From Escherichia coli (GTDB lineage: Bacteria; Pseudomonadota; Gammaproteobacteria; Enterobacterales; Enterobacteriaceae), in assembly GCF_011045215.1 (NCBI RefSeq), contig NZ_CP049201.1: a stretch of 64,000 bases of DNA; one strand, given 5' to 3'. A model generated the notes under the pieces. The model did not search any database. It had not been told where the DNA came from and worked only from the letters and a program-made list of their open reading frames with translations. A program made the translations under genes and the position numbers. Each line of letters opens with the position of its first letter. The stretch's first letter is position 1. This document shows, piece after piece, positions 3,747 to 17,949 of this stretch.

Positions 3747-4265
3747 TCACACCCGGATAATTTTTTTCAGATCCGACAGCACATTCACACCGTTAATGCG
3801 CCGTACAAACTGCTCCGGAATAATGCAGATGGTCTCCAGTCCATCGACAGCCTGGCGGTAATAACTCAGTGACATTTCCACCGACACCGCTGCTTCTGCC
3901 TGCGAGGTGGACGGACGCGCATCCGGCGTGATACTGGTGATCATCCCCTGAAGGGTTTCCACCAGACCGCTTGTTGCACCGCCCACCTGATACGCCTGAC
4001 GGACAACAATTTCTGGCGAATAAATCCCTGCCTGCAATCCCAGCAGAGTCAGTATGGCCACGTCGTATCCGTAAATTTTAAACGAGCAGGTCAGCGCCTC
4101 CATACCGTCATCCACTGACACCGGCGCATCCATCGCACCGGTTTTGATGTCCACCTTCGTGATATTGATGGCCGGAGGCGTGTACTCATGTGCCCCCTGA
4201 AGGCGAATACCACCCGGCAGAAAGAGCGCCCATGCCCGTAGCAGTTTTTTTTCGCACGACATCAT
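3747..4265 (-). CDS. Tail tube protein (P2 FII-like)
   Basis: 172 aa, same length and position as P2 FII downstream of sheath. Confidence 0.75.
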   Translation of the reverse strand: MMSCEKKLLRAWALFLPGGIRLQGAHEYTPPAINITKVDIKTGAMDAPVSVDDGMEALTCSFKIYGYDVAILTLLGLQAGIYSPEIVVRQAYQVGGATSGLVETLQGMITSITPDARPSTSQAEAAVSVEMSLSYYRQAVDGLETICIIPEQFVRRINGVNVLSDLKKIIRV

Positions 4266-5737
4266 ACTGTCAGTTCCTCCTGTGCCAGTTTATTGTTGAT
4301 CATTGTACGCAGCGTCAGGCGTTCCAGTGGTGACTTCGGCCCGAAGTCATAGTCGATATACAACTGCCCGGCAGCCAGGGTTTCTGCTGTATTCAGTTCG
4401 TCGTTCAGCCATGCGCTACCACCGTGGATCGCGCCCAGATTTTTAAGCTGGCGCATGTAGGCATTAATACTGCCGAGAATATCGTCCGCAACATCCCGAT
4501 CAATCGGACGGTCAACATAAGGCAACATGGATTCCTGAACACTGTCTTCAATCACATCAGCCGTACGGCGCACGGACTCAAAGCGCAACTGGCTATGAGA
4601 TGTGCACAGGCGGTTACCCCAGTGTTTAAAACCGTCATGACGAATAATGGTGGAGATGTTTTCCATGTTCAGCAGATTTGCCGTGCAGTTCTGCTCCCCG
4701 AGAATAAATGTATCCACCTGCTCAAGACCGGTGATATTCATCACGTCCTGATTTGATTTGGACCACCACCATCCTTTTTCATAATCAATACGGGCACGCA
4801 GTCCGGCAGCGCGTGCCGAATACGGGCGAAACACTGTTTGTCCGCTGTCATCCGTCACCGACACGCGCGGACGAAGCAGTTCAACACGCCCACCAAATAA
4901 CGTCCGGCGCTGAACCACATCCTGCGGCGTTACCATTGAGGGGGAGTCAATATAGGCAACAGCCCGCAGTTTCGCGGCATACGTTTCCAGCGCCTTTGCC
5001 ACACCATCATCCTCGCTGTAGCCAGTGGCGACAAGAATACGCGGCTGGTAGCCTGTTACGCCTTTGCTCTTCGTCAGAGCTTCCATGGCCTTAATCACTG
5101 CGGCACGCTGTTCTGCCTCCTTCGCTTTCGGTTTGCTTTCCGCACGTACCACAATCACCAGCGCACCGGTCTGGTCAAAAATATCACGCAGGGCAGGATA
5201 CAGCGTTCCGGAAGCCCCCAGCTTTCCGGCCTGCGTGAGTGCCCCCGCCACCACCACCGGCGTATTAACCGGAAATGCCTCATCCTCACCGCCGGACAAC
5301 GTCAGGGTAAAGGGAGATACCACTCCTTCCCCGACAGAATCTGCATTCAGCATGCTGGTATCGGCCATCACCGGTGAATCCTCCAGCGCATTCACAACCT
5401 CCTTCACACGTGACGCAGTGGCATTCGTCTCACCATGTTCATCTGTGCCCAGTGTGATCGTCAGGGTGTTTCCCTCCAGAGCCGCGGTTGTCTCTGCGTT
5501 TTGCTGCGTGCTTCCGTTGGCCACAACTGAAATCTCATTGCCGGACCGCCCGGCTTTTTTCGCTGTAAAATCCAGCGCGGAACTCAACAACCATGATCCG
5601 GCAGTACCGGAAGCACACACACCGCCGGAGGCGTCCGGCGCTGTCCCCACGAGGCCAATCACTGCCGTGGAGACGGTCTGCACGGCCACCGTGCCTGTCG
5701 TCAGTTCAATGGTTTCCACACCATGTAGTCCGGACAT
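4262..5737 (-). CDS. Contractile tail sheath protein (P2 FI-like)
   Basis: N-terminus MSGLHGVETIEL...VSTAVIGLVGTA and C-terminus ...LYIDYDFGP...LTLR resemble P2 FI; ORF track start 5824 is probably an upstream extension. Confidence 0.85.
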   Translation of the reverse strand: MSGLHGVETIELTTGTVAVQTVSTAVIGLVGTAPDASGGVCASGTAGSWLLSSALDFTAKKAGRSGNEISVVANGSTQQNAETTAALEGNTLTITLGTDEHGETNATASRVKEVVNALEDSPVMADTSMLNADSVGEGVVSPFTLTLSGGEDEAFPVNTPVVVAGALTQAGKLGASGTLYPALRDIFDQTGALVIVVRAESKPKAKEAEQRAAVIKAMEALTKSKGVTGYQPRILVATGYSEDDGVAKALETYAAKLRAVAYIDSPSMVTPQDVVQRRTLFGGRVELLRPRVSVTDDSGQTVFRPYSARAAGLRARIDYEKGWWWSKSNQDVMNITGLEQVDTFILGEQNCTANLLNMENISTIIRHDGFKHWGNRLCTSHSQLRFESVRRTADVIEDSVQESMLPYVDRPIDRDVADDILGSINAYMRQLKNLGAIHGGSAWLNDELNTAETLAAGQLYIDYDFGPKSPLERLTLRTMINNKLAQEELTV

Positions 5738-5792
5738 ACATTTCTCCCATAAAAAAACCGCCCCTGAGGCGGTCAGTTGATTTACTTCTTTT

Positions 5793-6338
5793 TCAGGTGT
5801 TTTGTGGAGGTACTGGCCACTCAATGGCGTTATATGAGGTTTTATCAGTGATGGTGCTGAAATCCATCGCCTGCAGCGATTTCGCGTAAATGCGGTACGC
5901 TTTCAGCTTTTCCCTGTCCTCGTCGCTGATTAATCCCAGCAACAGGTCTTTTTCCCATTCGCTGGTCATTATACTGACCTGTTTTAACAGGGCATCACGC
6001 TCGTCTTCCGCTTTAAGTTTGTAGTCGAAAACAAATTCATCATTGCGGTAAAACCAGTAGCCTGATGCTTCAATGCGACGATTAGCGGTAATATCCGGCA
6101 ACTCAATCACGCTTTTATTTTCCGGGCAGATTGAGGTGATGTCTTTTCCGACCCAGACCACTTCGCCAGTTTCAACATAAATAACTTTCAGGGTGTCTGG
6201 TAGAAATTTTTCCTGGGCTTCGTGCCATTCCTGTCCATCATCTGAGAACAGCCACAATAAAAATTTATGCTGTCGCGCCAGCTGGTATTGCTCAATTGTT
6301 TTAGGGTTTTGTACCGTAATATTTTTTAAGTGCATCAT
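5793..6338 (-). CDS. Tail fiber assembly protein (Tfa/gpG-like)
   Basis: 181 aa directly downstream of tail fiber gene; C-terminal ...IEWPVPP typical of Tfa chaperones. Confidence 0.6.
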   Translation of the reverse strand: MMHLKNITVQNPKTIEQYQLARQHKFLLWLFSDDGQEWHEAQEKFLPDTLKVIYVETGEVVWVGKDITSICPENKSVIELPDITANRRIEASGYWFYRNDEFVFDYKLKAEDERDALLKQVSIMTSEWEKDLLLGLISDEDREKLKAYRIYAKSLQAMDFSTITDKTSYNAIEWPVPPQNT

Positions 6339-6340
6339 GA

Positions 6341-7714
6341 TTACAAACTCGCTACATTTCTCCAGACGCCATTAATCAGAACCTGCACCGGGCGTGCATT
6401 GGCCCAGTCCACACTTTCACCGCCATCAACACCACTCAGTAAATGACCTGATGGCGCATTTCCCCCGCGTCCAATACCAATGGCGCTTCCCAGACGTACA
6501 TCCTGCACGCCGCCTGTTTTGGTCTGATAGCGGGCATCAAAGTTTCCGTAGTTTGATGGAGTTATCTGCCCATTTACAGCGAATGTGACGCTACCGTCTG
6601 TATTTCTCTGACTGTAGAAATGCCAGCCGGAATCATCACCAAGCTCTGCAACTACAGGTCTGGATGGATTACCCCATAAATTAAACCCTACGTTCTTCGT
6701 GGAGCTGTTGGAGCTGGATAGCGTGAATTTTTTACTATCCCCGGCCTGAACGTTTTTAAAAGCAATAGCAACTCCATTCTGAAAGCGAAATACGCGCTGA
6801 TTATTAGCATAAACATCCAGAATGCCGTCGCCGTTTTGTTTTATACCTGTATCGTTATCACCGAGAGTAATAGAATTACCACCCAATGCGTTATTCGTAC
6901 CAAGCGCCAGCCCACCATCAATTTTTGCACCGTGGCTGACTGATATAGCGCCTGTTCTCAGATTTATAGCAAATGGCCTTAATGGGCCGATATCACCGTT
7001 TTCGCCCCGTCCTTCAGACGTCGGGATAAAATGAAGATATTCTTCCGAACGACGAAAAATCAGGCCAAAAGCATCGTCGAAAATTCGCAGCGCATTCACC
7101 GTGCCAATTTTCAGCTCCCCGGTCATGGTGTCACCACCGCGCTGAACGGCATTTTTCGCTTTATCCACCGTAGGTTTTAATCCGAGGTTATCAACCGCTT
7201 CATCTTTATCTTCCACATCGGCAAGATTCTCGCCGATGCGCAGATAGCGTTTATCTCCGGCCTCCTGCGTGATAATCGCCCTGTGAGGATCCACCTCCAG
7301 CGTCACACTCTGTGTATGTGTAAGCGCAAGAACCAGTGTCAGTATCACCTCCTTGATAACGGAATCCGTCTGTGCCGGTAAATACGTATCCGGATAACGA
7401 CCATACGCAATCAGCGTGCCACGGCGACTCACCATCCCCAGCTCGCGCAGGGTCTTTCCCGGGTATGACTGACAGTCAATGACAATATCCCCGCTGATAA
7501 AACCTTCGTCCACCACGCCGCCTGAAAAGGGCTCCCGACCAAACTCACCACACAACATGACCATCGCCGCCATCTCATCCGGCGTTGAGGGCAGTGTTTT
7601 CCCGCCCCCGTCACCAATCATCACCTGACTGATGGTCACCACCTCACCGGCATGATATGCAGCTTCAATTTCGGCTGCCCCGGCTGTTGTCAAAACTAGT
7701 CCATGCATACCCAC
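6341..7714 (-). CDS. Tail fiber protein (P2 gpH-like N-terminus)
   Basis: 457 aa; conserved gpH-type N-terminal domain, Gly/Asn-rich distal part. Confidence 0.75.
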   Translation of the reverse strand: MGMHGLVLTTAGAAEIEAAYHAGEVVTISQVMIGDGGGKTLPSTPDEMAAMVMLCGEFGREPFSGGVVDEGFISGDIVIDCQSYPGKTLRELGMVSRRGTLIAYGRYPDTYLPAQTDSVIKEVILTLVLALTHTQSVTLEVDPHRAIITQEAGDKRYLRIGENLADVEDKDEAVDNLGLKPTVDKAKNAVQRGGDTMTGELKIGTVNALRIFDDAFGLIFRRSEEYLHFIPTSEGRGENGDIGPLRPFAINLRTGAISVSHGAKIDGGLALGTNNALGGNSITLGDNDTGIKQNGDGILDVYANNQRVFRFQNGVAIAFKNVQAGDSKKFTLSSSNSSTKNVGFNLWGNPSRPVVAELGDDSGWHFYSQRNTDGSVTFAVNGQITPSNYGNFDARYQTKTGGVQDVRLGSAIGIGRGGNAPSGHLLSGVDGGESVDWANARPVQVLINGVWRNVASL

Positions 7715-7717
7715 AAC

Positions 7718-8299
7718 TCACTCCACCCACTCATCCCGGATACCCCGGGTATCATCAGCACTGATACCACTGACTTTTTCTGTTGCCATCACATAACCGT
7801 AACCAAAAATACGCCCCCTGCTGTTTCCGTAAAGATGAACACTGAACCAGCTGCGCAGATTTTTGGCACGGAGCACCGCATGCTTCAGATCCTGATAGTC
7901 ATTCATCTGTACCGGTAAATCCTTCTGCTCCACATTCAACCGGAAGGTATAGGGTTCACCTGGTGGCGTCTGCTCATACCACTCCACAATCTGTGACCGG
8001 AACGGGCTGTCTGTCAGTGATTCGTTCAGAGCGGCTTTTGTTCCCCGGTGACGATGGATATAAGCGGCACGTTTTATCGCCGCTCTTTTTTCCGCCTCCG
8101 TCCAGTGTTCATTCCAGGCGTCCACCGACATTTCCCAGGCCAGCCATGGCAGCAATTCCGTCGGACATAAATCGGGATTTTTTACATAGCGGATCAGACA
8201 GACCGCGATTTCCGCCAGCATATCACCGGCGGTACTGTCCACCACCCGCTCTGCCCGGCTGGCGCTGACAGGAAGTATGCTTCTGATGATGTCATTCAT
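7718..8299 (-). CDS. Baseplate/tail formation protein I
   Basis: 193 aa between J and tail fiber, as in P2. Confidence 0.65.
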   Translation of the reverse strand: MNDIIRSILPVSASRAERVVDSTAGDMLAEIAVCLIRYVKNPDLCPTELLPWLAWEMSVDAWNEHWTEAEKRAAIKRAAYIHRHRGTKAALNESLTDSPFRSQIVEWYEQTPPGEPYTFRLNVEQKDLPVQMNDYQDLKHAVLRAKNLRSWFSVHLYGNSRGRIFGYGYVMATEKVSGISADDTRGIRDEWVE

Positions 8300-9206
8300 C
8301 GGTTGCCTCCACCTTGTTCAGTGTGACTGAGCGACACCATGGAGCCTGTCCCATCGCCGGAACAATATCACTGGCCGGCGATTTCAGTGCCACCGTAATC
8401 ACCCCCGTCTGATGCAGGGCTCCGTCCATACCGGAGCAGGACGCCACAGAACCAATCCGGTGAACACTGTCAGTGTATGTCTGCAGCGCCTGACGGGCAT
8501 TTTTCATCACCAGTTCACCATCCAGCCCGTAGGGAATATGAATATCTGCAACCACATCGTAGAGAATAATTTCTGCCGCACGGACACTGACAAAATCCGT
8601 CAGAGGTCGAATTTCATCATCATTGACTGACGCTGCCACCTTATCCAGCAGGGGTTGCGATGCCGTACCGTTTCCGGTTCGCGATAACACATAAAGAAAA
8701 ACACGCCCTTCCTGTGAATGCGTTTCCGGCCCGTAGGCTTTCACATCCAGCACATCAGGATCAGCACTCTGTGCAAAATAATGGTAAGCATTTTTCGCAC
8801 CGGCTGTACTGAGTCGCGCCCACGACAACTGAATACGCTCACGAAAGGCATCATCCCCTTCATACACCGCCGGTGTGGGCGGGATAGTGCTGTCATCTGC
8901 CGGAGTAATCACCAGACGTTGCACCTGAAAATTCGCACCAATCTGATCCAGATCGTTCCTGCGGGCACTGGCAAGCAGTACAGCCCGGACTGCATCATTG
9001 ACCTGCTGGCGCATCAGCGCCACCCGAAAAGCAAGCGCCTCCGCCCATTTATACGCCGGATCTGATTCCACCAGGGCCGAAAACAACGTGTCCAGTTCCT
9101 GATATTTCGCCACTATCTGAGTGACCAGCACAGCGGTGTCCGGCACCTCCACCGCATCCGGTACAGGTATCGCGGACAAATCAATAATGGCCTGAGACGT
9201 TGTCAA
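8292..9206 (-). CDS. Baseplate assembly protein J
   Basis: 304 aa, gpJ-like, between W and I. Confidence 0.8.
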   Translation of the reverse strand: MTTSQAIIDLSAIPVPDAVEVPDTAVLVTQIVAKYQELDTLFSALVESDPAYKWAEALAFRVALMRQQVNDAVRAVLLASARRNDLDQIGANFQVQRLVITPADDSTIPPTPAVYEGDDAFRERIQLSWARLSTAGAKNAYHYFAQSADPDVLDVKAYGPETHSQEGRVFLYVLSRTGNGTASQPLLDKVAASVNDDEIRPLTDFVSVRAAEIILYDVVADIHIPYGLDGELVMKNARQALQTYTDSVHRIGSVASCSGMDGALHQTGVITVALKSPASDIVPAMGQAPWCRSVTLNKVEATDE

Positions 9207-9537
9207 TTCTGATTTCCTCCAGACGAATTGTTTCCTGTGTTTCGTTATTCACGCCCAAAAGCGTCAACATGACATTTCCCTCACCGCCGAAGCTCACCTC
9301 CACACGGCGGATCGTCAGTCTCGGTTCCCAGCGTTCAAGAGCGGTAACCGTCTCACGGACAATCCTCACCCGTGTGAAATCATCCTGCGGGTTATCAAGC
9401 AGACTGAACAACCTGCTGCCGTATTCCCTGAGAAGTACCCGGCTGCCGACTGGTGTTGACAAAATATCGGTGACGGACTGACGCAGATGTTCGTTACCGT
9501 GCAGATATCTGCCGGTGGCGGAATCAATACCAATCAT
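9181..9537 (-). CDS. Baseplate protein W (GPW/gp25 family)
   Basis: about 118 aa from MIGIDSATGRY...; between V and J. Confidence 0.7.
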   Translation of the reverse strand: MIGIDSATGRYLHGNEHLRQSVTDILSTPVGSRVLLREYGSRLFSLLDNPQDDFTRVRIVRETVTALERWEPRLTIRRVEVSFGGEGNVMLTLLGVNNETQETIRLEEIRIDNVSGHY

Positions 9538-9571
9538 GAAATTTTTCCGAAAAAAAACGCCGGTGCGGCGT

Positions 9572-10195
9572 TCACATTTCCTGGTTAGGTTTACGGGTGG
9601 TTCCCCCGCTGTCGCCAGGGTGATCATGAGTATTATAAATTTCGCGAATTTTACTCATGCTGCCGGTTTTATCGGTGATCTCCTGTGAGGCACCGATATT
9701 GCCCAGAACCTGCGTATCGGCATTAATCTTCGTTTCTCCCTGCACAGTCAGGGTATCCGTGATTTCCACCGGACCGTCCAGCGTTCCCCTGCCGGTGATT
9801 TTATAGCTGCCGCTTTCAGCCAGCGTGATGGACAGGGCATTGGCTTTACGGTCGTAACGGATTTCCGTTCCGGTATCAAACAAAATAACATGCTCGTGTT
9901 CACTGCCCGCCGGTACAGGAATGGCGTCAATATTCGCCCCCGGATACACACGACCGTTACGCAGATCGCCCGCCTCCGATATCACCGTGACCGCATCTCC
10001 TGGTGCCGGGTAATTACTGACCTGCATGTAACGCCCGGACTGCATCTGAATCCAGGGCAACGGCGGCGAAAGCACATCTCCGATATCCACCCGAACCATC
10101 ACCGGGTTACCCGGGATCACCTCTTCCACCACGCCGCGACGGATCATGTCCGCCACCCTGCGGCGTAACTCTGCCACTTCATCCGCCAGACTCAT
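9572..10195 (-). CDS. Baseplate spike/assembly protein V
   Basis: Start MSLADEVAELRRRVADMIRRG... resembles P2 gpV N-terminus; ORF track 5' extension to 10354 unlikely to be coding. Confidence 0.75.
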   Translation of the reverse strand: MSLADEVAELRRRVADMIRRGVVEEVIPGNPVMVRVDIGDVLSPPLPWIQMQSGRYMQVSNYPAPGDAVTVISEAGDLRNGRVYPGANIDAIPVPAGSEHEHVILFDTGTEIRYDRKANALSITLAESGSYKITGRGTLDGPVEITDTLTVQGETKINADTQVLGNIGASQEITDKTGSMSKIREIYNTHDHPGDSGGTTRKPNQEM

Positions 10196-10711
10196 CGCCG
10201 GTGCCCTCCGCTTTCCAGATAAGACGATAATCCTGCACATGCTTTTTACCGGTTTCCGGTACTTTACCCAGCCAGACTTCCTGTAACGGCACACCTGCCG
10301 GAGCCGCAAACGGATCTTCGCCGACCGGAATGTCCTGTTCAAAAGAGAAAGCAAACAAACAAGATAATAAGTTGAATTTAAAGGAATAAAAAAGGCATCA
10401 TTTTTGCTTTTGGTACAAATTCTAGTCCGTATAAACGCGGAAAAATCCGCTAAATTAAGATAAAAAAGATGCTTAGATAGTTACTATGTTTAGCTTCATG
10501 GCTACGGGGAGTAAGTTTGCTCTTTGCTTAATCTCGGTTATGGAAATCCCCATATCGGCATCATGCCCACCAGCGTGACGCATTTTTTTTAATTTCGCGG
10601 GTATAAAAATTTGACGAGGCGGGCGGTCCCATAAGCAATGGGGTGTAGGGATTCCGATCCCCCTGGGGGGGGTATTAAACACCCACCCTATTTAAATACC
10701 GTCTTTTTTGT

Positions 10712-10757
10712 CACTGTGTGTCACTGGTTGTCACTCTCCGTCACGGTATGCCACCAT
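10712..10757. repeat. Clustered GTCAC(T) direct repeats
   Basis: tgtcactgtgtgtcactggttgtcactctccgtcacgg: four copies within 46 bp in a noncoding stretch between tail and island. Confidence 0.6.
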
Positions 10758-10760
10758 AAG

Positions 10761-15188: not shown

Positions 15189-15367
15189 GCCTCACTTTTT
15201 AAGCTCCCAACATGATTTCCAACCTTGTTTTTTTGTGATTCTAATATGTTGTTTTTCAATGTGTTTTTTATTCCTCACTTTTGAGCCTATATACAGGTTG
15301 AAAAGTGAGGGGCGCGGTTGCTTTTTGTTCAGTTTCTGCTATCCCCTCACTTTTGTGCCTCACTTTT
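15189..15367. repeat. Iteron cluster (putative island replication origin)
   Basis: CCTCACTTTT at 15189, 15273, 15345, 15358 plus inverted copy AAAAGTGAGG at 15301, directly 3' of helicase-primase gene. Confidence 0.55.
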
Positions 15368-16782
15368 TACAGTGGGCGCACATCATCACCGTCAATAGTG
15401 ATAACGCCGTCTCTTTCCAGCTTGTACAGCCAGCGCCGAAAGTTTTTCATCTCATACCCCAGCTTTTTCATATCATCACGCAATAACGGGATAGTGCATT
15501 TATCGCCGCGCTGTGTGCGTGAACGGATACAGCCCCATAGCGCGGCGTGATTCTCCGTCTTGTTTCCGGCCTCCTCAATGCGCTCCAGTTCAACAGGTGG
15601 GCGCGGCTTATCCACTACCACCAGCGACGTGATTAACTCCTTGTCAGCGTCGATAAAAAGCTCCACCACGCGTAAATCGTATGCGGCCTCTTTCAGTTCC
15701 TCTGCGTCCTTCATTTTGGTGCAGGAGATAACCAGGGCTTCACTGTCTGCACCTTCCCGGCGAATACGGTATTCAGCGTCCAGAGATGCACGAAATGCAC
15801 TGGAACCACGCGCCCCCTTTGTTTCATCCTTGCCGGAATGGTGAACCACCAGTACCGTGGCCCCTGTGCGTCGTTTCAGTTCGTCACATCCACGGATAAA
15901 CGCCCCCATATCCCGCGCGTCATTTTCATCATTACCGCCAAAACACCGCGCCAGCGTATCCAGAATAATCATGCGTACCGGTTTACCCGTTTCCCTTTCA
16001 ACCTGGCGGGAAGCGATGACCATTTCATCAATATCAAACTGTGCTGCCGGAAAAATCGGGCGGTTTACCAGGTACAGATTTTTCACCCGTTCATCATTAA
16101 CGATTTCCCATGCTTTGATACGACGAGGGACACCAATGCCACCTTCACCGACGACATACATCACCGAACCATGCGCCACCCTGCGGCCTCCCCAGTGGCG
16201 ACCCGTGGCAACATGACACGCCCAGGAACACGCGAGGAATGATTTATAGGAACCGCTCGCGCCGTATGTGCTGCACAACGAATTAGCCGGAATCACGCCC
16301 TTAACGACATAATCAAGCTGTGTGTCGTACCCTGCAGATCCAATACTCATTGGTAGCGTGGTTTTTCGCTGGTCGTTTTTTTCTTCCTCCGGTATCTCTC
16401 CGGACCGTCTTTTCTGGCGCTCTCGTTCCAGATATTCGCGCCACCCCTCCCGCTTCTGGCTGTGCATTCCCTCAGGGTAATAATTCGCATCCCGTACACC
16501 TGCCGCTGCCAGCTTTTGCCCGATGGCATTAATATTTGACGGCTTGATGTGGCCTGCCTTGTACAGCCGGACACAATAGCGACCATCGTCGATAATTTTC
16601 AGGTCAGCCAGTTCGTCAAGATGGCTGTCTCCAAGCCATACAGGCGGAACATTGTCGCCAGCAAGTCGCCCGTCCTGCTCCTGCCATTGTTTCGCGTGCG
16701 CCCAGGCATCACTACCCGCAAAAATAATGACTTCGGTCATTTTGTCGTGCGGCTGTTTTTTTAAGTTCGGTGCCAGTTTCAT
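15367..16782 (-). CDS. Replication protein, RepA-like helicase/primase (AAA_25-type P-loop NTPase)
   Basis: 471 aa; Walker A GASGSYKS, Walker B RMIILDTLARCF, ...VLVVHHSGKDE...; N-terminal extra domain. Confidence 0.7.
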   Translation of the reverse strand: MKLAPNLKKQPHDKMTEVIIFAGSDAWAHAKQWQEQDGRLAGDNVPPVWLGDSHLDELADLKIIDDGRYCVRLYKAGHIKPSNINAIGQKLAAAGVRDANYYPEGMHSQKREGWREYLERERQKRRSGEIPEEEKNDQRKTTLPMSIGSAGYDTQLDYVVKGVIPANSLCSTYGASGSYKSFLACSWACHVATGRHWGGRRVAHGSVMYVVGEGGIGVPRRIKAWEIVNDERVKNLYLVNRPIFPAAQFDIDEMVIASRQVERETGKPVRMIILDTLARCFGGNDENDARDMGAFIRGCDELKRRTGATVLVVHHSGKDETKGARGSSAFRASLDAEYRIRREGADSEALVISCTKMKDAEELKEAAYDLRVVELFIDADKELITSLVVVDKPRPPVELERIEEAGNKTENHAALWGCIRSRTQRGDKCTIPLLRDDMKKLGYEMKNFRRWLYKLERDGVITIDGDDVRPL

Positions 16783-17078
16783 TTTTTACCCCTGAATGCG
16801 TTAATCATGTTTTTCATTTTCTGAATGTTCGCCCGTGCCTTTGCGTTGCTGGTGGGCTGTTTGCATGGCGTGGCCTGTATCAGTGAAAAATCACGCCGGA
16901 ACTGATAAACAGGCATCACGCAGTCATAGCCGTACCCATCACGGCGGTAAGTAACGCACCGTCCCGCCACGCTTTTAATCGTTACCGTGCCGCCGTAGTT
17001 ATCCCGGAAAATATCGCCGGGGCGGATTTCAGGCCGAGCGGGGCCGCTGGCAGTAAAGCCAGAAATTTTCTGTTTCAT
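16779..17078 (-). CDS. Hypothetical protein
   Basis: 99 aa ORF, start overlaps helicase-primase gene. Confidence 0.4.
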   Translation of the reverse strand: MKQKISGFTASGPARPEIRPGDIFRDNYGGTVTIKSVAGRCVTYRRDGYGYDCVMPVYQFRRDFSLIQATPCKQPTSNAKARANIQKMKNMINAFRGKK

Positions 17079-17094
17079 GGTTTTTATTCCTCTG

Positions 17095-17294
17095 CGCGGG
17101 TCTTGTTGTGTATTTCCATAACCGCGTTTAATTCATCAATAACCGGGGTTAACAGAGTGCTGAAAGCAGAAAATAAATCCCCCCCCCTGTTCGGCATGAA
17201 CTTCGGTTAATTTAATTAATACCGCTTTCATTTCCAGTGCCCGGTTTAATGCATTCTCAGAATGAATAAGAACATCGAAAGGGATTTTATCCAT
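17095..17294 (-). pseudogene. Small ORF interrupted at G9 homopolymer (frameshift or phase-variable)
   Basis: ATG at 17294 reads MDKIPFDVLIHSENALNRALEMKAVLIKLTEVHAEQGGG then poor frame; with G8 it continues ...DLFSAFSTLLTPVIDELNAVMEIHNKTRAEE to a stop 5 nt before next gene. Confidence 0.35.
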
Positions 17295-17753
17295 GGCTTA
17301 CATCCTCCGGGAATTTTCTTCTGTAACGCGCCTCTGCAACATATTCCGCATAGTCCGACGCAATATTGAGAATCTCCACACCCTCTGACCTGTAGCCACT
17401 GGTACTGATAAGAAAAAATGCGGCTTTCATCATGTCGGCAACGCATAACAACGCATCGCCTGTATGTTCCGGTGCGCCATCAAATTCCTGTTTCAGGGCA
17501 TTAAAACGATCATCACGCATAACCCCCCCCCATTTTCACAATCAGTAATCAGGATGGCTTTAGCCTCATTCAGTGCCATATCAGCACTAAATTGCATAAC
17601 AGCCAGTGAGTGAGGAACGAAATCCCCGGCATATTCTGTTTCGCTGGTGGCGTGCTTATGTGCCCTGTCCGCGATAACAGAAATATCAATCAGCGCGTGC
17701 ATCAGCGTTTTGATGGCTTCGGCGGCTGCGTCCTGACGGGTGTTATTGCACAT
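17287..17753 (-). pseudogene. Gene split by G9 homopolymer (86-aa + 77-aa ORFs; fuse with G10)
   Basis: ORF 17493-17753 ends ...CENGGGLCVMIVLMP; one extra G in the tract at 17523-17531 gives ...GGGVMRDDRFNALKQEF... continuous with ORF 17287-17520. Confidence 0.4.
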
Positions 17754-17949
17754 GGCGCACCTCCTGACGAATACGGGCGGCGAATACCATCACGCAGCCA
17801 TCAGGAGATTGCTGACGCGCTTCCTGTTCGTTGGTGGCCTCAATGGTAATCACGCGCGGTTGTGCCGTGCTCAGGGCGATAAAACGCCAGATGTATTTAT
17901 TCAGGTTGTGCGAGTCCCGCCCTTGCGGGTGTGTGGTATGATTTAACAT
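17743..17949 (-). CDS. Small protein, first gene of leftward island operon (Cro-like position)
   Basis: 68 codons (MLNHTTHPQGRD...RHVQ) with RBS GAGGT; divergent from RHH gene across operator region; not in ORF track as a separate ORF. Confidence 0.4.
   Translation of the reverse strand: MLNHTTHPQGRDSHNLNKYIWRFIALSTAQPRVITIEATNEQEARQQSPDGCVMVFAARIRQEVRHVQ

Follow-up and report, generated by a model that had tools for sequence, protein, structure and literature searches.

Length-variable G tracts in early genes of a predicted phage satellite integrated in Escherichia coli

Phase variation through homopolymeric tracts has been described in Neisseria, Haemophilus, Campylobacter and Bordetella (PMC5084427, PMC1891110). 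Among viruses, the Fletcherviruses of Campylobacter are reported to carry hypermutable polyG tracts of 7–11 G in receptor-binding genes (Sorensen et al. 2021, as cited in bioRxiv 10.1101/2025.10.21.683753), and contingency loci have been proposed in the coliphages T2 and T4 (agt, rIIA) and in other phages (Gomez, Barrick and Waters, bioRxiv 10.1101/2025.10.21.683753), in a study that does not treat satellites, PICIs or temperate elements. Our literature search found no paper that links PICIs or satellites with homopolymer tracts. E. coli is not known for phase variation based on simple sequence repeats (SSRs). Homopolymers can also act as programmed frameshift or slippage sites, as in dnaX, prfB, IS elements and Shigella mxiE. 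Here we describe two neighbouring G tracts in the early genes of an integrated E. coli element and compare them with these systems.

Two G9 tracts in neighbouring early genes

Within a 64-kb stretch of E. coli DNA (the window), only two homopolymers reach a length of at least 9 nt. Tract 1 is a run of C9 on the plus strand at 17523–17531 and tract 2 a run of C9 on the plus strand at 17179–17187, both of which read as G9 on the coding, minus strand. The coordinates and the frame arithmetic given for them in the initial annotation proved correct on direct checking. By count alone, two G9 runs are unremarkable (dinucleotide shuffles contained 0.59 matches on average, with at least two in 15 of 100). 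Their arrangement goes beyond chance, as they occupy adjacent genes on one strand at a distance of 345 nt (roughly 0.005 given two runs, by our own arithmetic), and homologous tracts are present at these sites in dozens of related islands.

Tract 1 marks the junction of two cistrons, denoted N-half and C-half, and encodes Gly residues at the C-terminus of the N-half. Its 5' flank, GATTGTGAAAAT (17532–17543, minus strand; codons D C E N), is identical in homologs whose proteins are 55–97% identical to the window's. The 3' flank, TTATGCGTGATGA (17510–17522, minus strand), is likewise invariant; it contains the MRDDRF start codon (ATG) and, in the G8 frame, supplies an overlapping TGA stop followed by a second TGA. 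The N-half ORF (17493–17753, minus strand), which matches phrog_5146 and the N-terminal half of phrog_2512, is 86 aa long in the G9 state, with the last nine residues, LCVMIVLMP, being an out-of-frame read across the start of the next cistron. The C-half ORF (17287–17520, minus strand; MRDDRF..., 77 aa) matches phrog_24341; it is a cistron of its own when the locus is split and becomes the C-terminal domain when the locus is fused. Editing tract 1 in silico to G10 joined the two ORFs into a 155-aa fusion (...CENGGGVMRDDRFNALKQ...), as the initial annotation had claimed. Editing to G8 gave two cistrons of 79 aa (ending ...NGGGYA) and 77 aa with a stop/start overlap, ATGCGTGA; this split arrangement, overlooked in that annotation, is commoner than fusion among relatives.

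Tract 2 lies inside a small ORF (17084–17294, minus strand) that matches phrog_2196, in a linker between two conserved helical parts. In the window the product has 52 aa (17136–17294). Setting the tract to G8 yielded the extended ORF that had been claimed, 69 aa ending at 17084, with its stop 5 nt before the DUF4222 start at 17078. In the G9 state, the usual C-terminal part is still encoded in frame by a 37-aa ORF (17084–17197) that starts at an ATG 10 nt before tract 2; because no SD-like sequence is seen by eye upstream of this ATG, the ORF is probably not expressed.

The tightly overlapping operon segment that contains the tracts begins with an Icd-like gene (17743–17949, minus strand; NCBIfam NF033153, E = 1.3e-19, and the RefSeq annotation of homologs). 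Directly downstream of the small ORF lies a DUF4222 gene (16779–17078, minus strand; Pfam PF13973, E = 2e-24), which is overlapped by 4 nt by the island's replication gene, a RepA-family helicase (AAA_25; 15367–16782, minus strand; Pfam PF13481, E = 6.7e-44, and the RefSeq annotation of homologs). Judged from gene content, the whole series (int, AlpA, BRO-N, Icd-like, N-half, C-half, small ORF, DUF4222 and RepA helicase) appears to be the early operon of an integrated PICI/P4-like phage satellite that also carries SSB, a lambda-E-type capsid protein and Nu1. The genes thus comprise the integrase, AlpA-type regulator, replication and packaging functions by which such elements of about 10–15 kb are recognized, and related IMG/VR contigs are mostly 7–15 kb. 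An alpA gene is required of PICI-type satellites (bioRxiv 10.1101/2022.09.08.507074); the AlpA match here is weak (E = 5e-4, 20.3 bits vs a cut-off of 21).

Other phage DNA borders the satellite on both sides (window 4262–10354 and 22000–46000). One neighbour is a contractile-tail module of P2-like type that shares the strand of the satellite (sheath, tail-fibre assembly, fibre, gpI, gpJ and gpW); the other, past the integrase, is a lambdoid prophage (terminase, portal and S49 protease). A non-coding stretch just downstream of Nu1 (10600–10760) contains a palindrome, CCCCC-T-GGGGGGGG, at 10658–10672, which is the window's only other G/C run of at least 8 nt, together with a GC-rich GAGGCGGGCGGTCCC motif and, at about 10710–10745, four GTCAC repeats spaced by about 10 nt. 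From these motifs, the stretch looks like the cos/terminase-binding region of the satellite.

Tract length, reading frame and coding constraint in related islands

The comparison of tract lengths in related islands that the initial annotation had proposed revealed a range of G4 to G11 at tract 1 and of G5 to G13 at tract 2. An exact-pattern scan of IMG/VR with the invariant flanks of tract 1, which is unbiased by reading frame, returned 90 instances. The tract was uninterrupted at G7–G11 in 81 of these (G7 in 23, G8 in 34, G9 in 18, G10 in 4 and G11 in 2) and interrupted in nine (GGGGGTGG, GGGGTGGG, GGGGGGGGTGG or GGGGAGGGGGGG). Sorted by frame, 27 instances were fused, 42 had the two-cistron G8 frame and 21 the G9 frame of the window. 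In a protein-seeded set, which also brought in G4 alleles, 25 loci were fused, 20 had the G8 frame and 11 the G9 frame; among ten contigs from NCBI, Logan and ENA, picked solely for encoding an intact small ORF, tract 1 was G7 in one, G8 in four and G9 in five. The same diversity is seen in the databases: the fused product accounts for more than 120 protein clusters of 154/155 aa, the fusion, the N-half and the C-half each have a PHROGs family, and RefSeq divides the tract 1 stretch into ORFs of 77 + 79 or 77 + 86 aa in some records, has a single 154-aa ORF in others, and lists the small ORF at 47, 52, 68 or 69 aa. Related DNA is present in 1640 of 5426 complete E. coli genomes, at a best identity of 95.9%; an exact-pattern scan of species-representative genomes gave no matches. 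In one complete genome (NZ_CM143727.1, 1737–2201), the fused frame arises through loss of one T beside G8 (G8-T-ATG vs G8-TT-ATG), and tract 2 ends in T in place of its final G (G7T), a substitution that changes D to Y and leaves the frame intact.

Tract 1 differs even between loci that share 100% or at least 99% identity across 730 nt of flanking sequence: G10 in L007 vs G9 in L037, G7 in L010/L011 vs G8 in L042–44, G7 in L019 vs G9 in L030, and G9 in L050 vs G8 in L051. In a second sample, for which 100% identity was demanded over a longer, 800-nt flank, tract 1 length was the same in 10 of 10 identical-flank pairs against an expected 25%, an agreement reached in none of 1000 permutations; these pairs fall into three groups and may be re-sequenced clones. 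Pairs with 99.5–99.9% flank identity in the same sample agreed in length only at chance level. Because identical-flank pairs agree whereas these slightly diverged pairs do so only at chance, the tract calls appear to be reproducible and heritable, with a turnover much faster than that of substitutions. Such a pattern fits real alleles that mutate far faster than by point substitution, not random miscalls. In four strains that share one integration site, the islands are not clonal but lie 11–264 substitutions apart. The two tracts vary independently, with tract 1/tract 2 combinations of G8/G8, G8/G9, G8/G7, G7/G7, G7/G8, G9/G5, G9/G8 and G9/G9 all seen; an unrelated island (87% identity) from a food-metagenome assembly is G9/G9, like the window.

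The full-length forms of the tract 1 protein align as a mosaic, in which several N-half types are combined with several C-half types and always joined at an invariant DCEN-G(n)-VMRDDRFN junction. The 25 nt that flank tract 1 (17510–17543) remain invariant even where the proteins are only 55–60% identical to the window's. This suggests that the junction may serve as a module-exchange (recombination) point, like the boundary sequences of lambdoid phages. In a second architecture (L053–L084), the N-half is a stand-alone 74-aa gene that is followed by an unrelated 127-aa ORF and then by the MRDDRF gene. A variable G-run, CAG-G6/7/8/10-TAAAC-ATGCGTGATGA (range G6–G10), again directly precedes the MRDDRF gene and produces the same three outcomes, namely an overlapping stop, an early stop or a 203-aa fusion. 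Since the run precedes MRDDRF in this arrangement also, it is a feature of the 5' end of the MRDDRF cistron. One 14-kb contig (IMGVR_UViG_2740892233_000016) carries two tandem Icd-like/MRDDRF modules about 1.3 kb apart, one with a truncated N-part and G8, the other with a full fused gene and G7.

The predicted duplex between the G-run and the 16S anti-SD sequence is about -11 kcal/mol at any length of at least 6 and equals the strongest SD in the operon; given so strong a duplex, we infer that translation of the C-half begins at its own start codon whatever the tract length. The statement of the initial annotation that each tract breaks an early gene is borne out for tract 2, which does truncate the small ORF. 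It does not describe tract 1, where there is no simple break, because the halves are exchangeable modules that other islands carry as independent genes, because no tract state deprives the C-half of its own ATG and strong SD-like G-run, and because the split G8 frame occurs more often than either alternative.

Both halves of the tract 1 locus remain open in relatives. The N-half is open in 151 of 151 instances, covering all three tract states; in about 97% of these the C-half has its usual length of 77 or 73 codons, and in split loci both halves are open in 31 of 31. Values of pN/pS are 0.20 for the N-half and 0.46 for the C-half, compared with 2.57 and 1.09 in out-of-frame controls, and these ratios point to purifying selection on both halves. 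The possibility that the halves are paralogs was discarded, as BLASTP detected no relation between them (E = 14). Searches of Pfam, NCBIfam, PADLOC and PDB sequences with the fused protein and the small ORF gave no match, and the PHROGs families matched by these proteins are all of unknown function. A low-confidence AlphaFold2 model (29-sequence alignment; pLDDT 56.5), weakest at the tract, hints at two helical hairpins.

At tract 2, the repaired 69-aa sequence is found exactly on 22 contigs elsewhere, in a cluster spanning hundreds of contigs. Full-length relatives of 68, 69 or 70 aa contain QGD, QGGD or RGGGD at the tract, equivalent to G5, G8 and G11, and about 14 clusters are truncated at 46–52 aa with tails equivalent to G6, G7, G9, G10 and G13. 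The homolog products therefore imply tract lengths of G5, 6, 7, 8, 9, 10, 11 and 13, with the truncated forms being a sizeable minority; by DNA, tract 2 is in frame in 7 of 12 independent instances. A metagenome scan for tract 2 gave nine matches, two of which were real. In a distant 75-aa family, both sides are conserved without a G-run, which identifies the full-length small ORF as a real gene and places the tract in a linker. The reading frame beyond tract 2 runs on to the usual stop in all 23 instances (23/23); the ORF varies too little for a meaningful pN/pS.

Additional length-variable G-runs were seen at IMG/VR loci L085–L174, about 2.76 kb and 4.9–5.4 kb downstream of tract 1, in the fixed contexts TGGGTAGA-G7/G8-AGGCACAA and ATAATTAC-G8/G10-ATATGCCA. 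As such runs recur at fixed contexts in related islands, variable G tracts may be a wider habit of this satellite family.

Origin of the tract alleles

We consider it probable that the G9 runs are hypermutable slipped-strand tracts of the contingency-locus type and that the window carries two common length alleles. The initial annotation had listed slipped-strand variation among its options, and the comparison favours it, in that lengths among relatives fall in all three frames and can differ even where the flanks are identical. Through slipped-strand mispairing, DNA replication would add and remove G's and so generate many tract lengths in one island family. In E. coli, indels become exponentially more frequent as homopolymers lengthen, and G:C runs of only 8 bp stand out as outlier hot spots (PMC8510543).

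Tract 1 has three outcomes. G8 or G11 gives two genes of 79 + 77 aa with the overlap ATGCGTGA, which would be translationally coupled; G4, G7 or G10 gives a single fused protein of 153–155 aa; and G9, as in the window, gives the 86-aa N-half with its 9-residue out-of-frame tail, plus the 77-aa C-half. With the ATG of the C-half retained throughout and the G-run acting as its putative Shine-Dalgarno element, tract 1 would alter architecture and coupling rather than switch a gene plainly on or off. Tract 2, on the other hand, is a classical on/off tract, with G5, G8 or G11 producing the full 68–70-aa protein and other lengths, including the window's G9, a 46–52-aa product that lacks the conserved C-terminal helix. 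The truncated product ends about 58 nt, not 5 nt, upstream of the DUF4222/RepA replication genes, and translation of these genes might be affected.

Whether the tracts go further and are true contingency loci, that is, stochastic, heritable and reversible switches that diversify clonal satellite-carrying E. coli, is a more speculative matter, and we regard this as possible though doubtful. If true, an early two-domain protein would be fused, coupled or uncoupled depending on the subpopulation, expression of a small early protein would likewise vary, and tract 2 could act on the DUF4222/RepA replication module through translational coupling. Such diversity might hedge between types of helper-phage responsiveness, or between interference and silence. 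As SSR bet-hedging it would have no described precedent in a satellite and would be rare in E. coli, a host proficient in mismatch repair. Given that proficiency, switching may be too slow for strict phase variation. Alternatively, the G-run could owe its persistence to an SD function alone, and its changes in length could be tolerated by-products of no adaptive value.

The competing explanation that survives best is a homopolymer miscall in the window's assembly, in which the true state would be G8/G8, a common one, or G10/G8, and the G9 runs would be consensus errors. The initial annotation had argued that the opposite corrections needed at the two tracts exclude a single systematic miscall. 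That argument fails, because G8/G8 is a common natural state relative to which the window has one additional G at both tracts, and one systematic over-call could therefore explain both. The tracts, as the window's only runs of at least 9 nt, are also its most error-prone sites, and its exact 86-, 77- and 52-aa products are not on record. Nevertheless, independent assemblies commonly have G9 at tract 1 (5 of 10 NCBI/Logan/ENA contigs, 18 of 90 IMG/VR instances), the same length turns up again at tract 2 in L032/L162, in L186 and in a 20-member cluster of 52-aa products, the independent food-metagenome island is likewise G9/G9, and identical islands give identical calls. Outside the island, the window is prophage DNA whose relatives are at best 93–95% identical, and homopolymers were instead checked internally against ORF continuity; the long ORFs cross runs of 7–8 nt unbroken, a weakly informative result. 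On this evidence a miscall is unlikely, and the family-level polymorphism would stand even if the window were miscalled.

Programmed recoding, also raised in the initial annotation, would leave the DNA as it is and restore full-length or fused products through ribosomal frameshifting on the G-run (-1 at tract 1 and +1 at tract 2 in the window) or through slippage of RNA polymerase. The sequence has some suitable properties: G_GGG_GGG should permit perfect re-pairing of tRNA-Gly in shifted frames, and the G-run is a strong internal SD-like element, of a type known to stimulate frameshifting in prfB and dnaX. Runs of at least 9 nt can support transcriptional slippage, chiefly when composed of A or T. 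However, programmed sites are fixed in length and frame across homologs, whereas here the slippery length is not fixed, no two-frame arrangement is conserved and all three frames are common (27, 42 and 21 of 90). Nor do the 93 nt after each tract contain RNA structure beyond the shuffled background that could be stimulatory (z = -1.12 and -0.19). For polymerase slippage, the run is long enough, but its base is G, the arrangement is not conserved, and the bacterial cases known to us occur at A/T runs, not at G runs. Low-slip alleles exist in both architectures (the T-interrupted 8-nt GGGGGTGG/GGGGTGGG in the split form and G4 in the fused form), so neither form appears to depend on recoding. 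Some low-level slippage on G9 may occur, but nothing requires it; as an explanation of the tracts, recoding is very unlikely.

Pseudogenisation, the remaining option of the initial annotation, by which the early genes would be decaying through ordinary inactivating frameshifts in a domesticated, immobile island, draws on the loss in the window of a C-terminal part of the small ORF that is conserved and intact in most relatives, and on the position of the island among other prophage DNA, but is highly improbable given that both halves are open in all split loci and in about 97–100% of instances with pN/pS well below 1, that the small ORF past tract 2 is open throughout (23/23), that breaks occur solely at the tracts with no further lesions or lost constraint, and that the rest of the island (int, AlpA, RepA, capsid E and Nu1) is intact.

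Hypermutable slipped-strand tracts, the reading we prefer, have consequences for annotation. The tract sites spawn spurious "hypothetical protein" variants, seen as clusters of 79, 86, 77, 154, 155, 47, 52 and 69 aa, and one locus is split over three PHROG families. Tract alleles should be neither auto-corrected as assembly errors nor flagged as pseudogenes, and the invariant junction may be useful as a module-exchange marker for satellite mosaicism.

Comparison with known switches

Programmed sites such as dnaX, prfB, IS elements and mxiE resemble the satellite locus in having a homopolymer in overlapping frames, an adjacent SD-like element and two products. They are, however, fixed in length and frame and act at the level of RNA or the ribosome, whereas in the satellite the DNA length itself varies and no stimulatory structure accompanies the tracts.

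The Fletchervirus tracts, as far as the secondary account cited above describes them, share with the satellite uninterrupted runs of G7–11 in genes of a viral element and variants in all frames that alter the protein. In that account they belong to virulent phages, to a host without mismatch repair and to receptor-binding genes, with a demonstrated host-range phenotype; the satellite is an integrated E. coli element with tracts in early genes, one of them at a cistron junction. The T2 and T4 loci are alike in being homopolymer SSRs in genes of E. coli phages, with reversible slippage frameshifts and a proposed role in bet-hedging. They involve homopolymers of at least 6 nt in lytic phages, with switching measured within phage populations, whereas the satellite tracts are longer G-runs documented by comparison between strains.

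With the contingency loci of bacteria, the satellite tracts share a coding poly-G/C tract that sets the frame, is polymorphic in close relatives and is conserved across divergent alleles. The classical bacterial loci are chromosomal genes for surface structures or restriction-modification in SSR-rich organisms, and unlike simple on/off switches of this kind, tract 1 has three architectures (coupled, fused and uncoupled). What is unusual here is a tract that sits on a cistron junction, doubles as a putative SD element and toggles among these three states.

We file the tracts with known contingency loci because each is an uninterrupted homopolymer of at least about 7 nt in a reading frame or translation-initiation region, because lengths are polymorphic on identical flanks (G10/G9, G7/G8, G7/G9 and G9/G8), and because length shifts the frame and the product at both tracts. 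Should the switching prove functional, the use of simple-sequence contingency loci would extend from bacteria and, more recently, lytic phages to phage satellites, and a clear SSR-based switch would be known in E. coli. On the reading we prefer, the tracts add a new case to a familiar class of genetic switches and do not mark dead genes.
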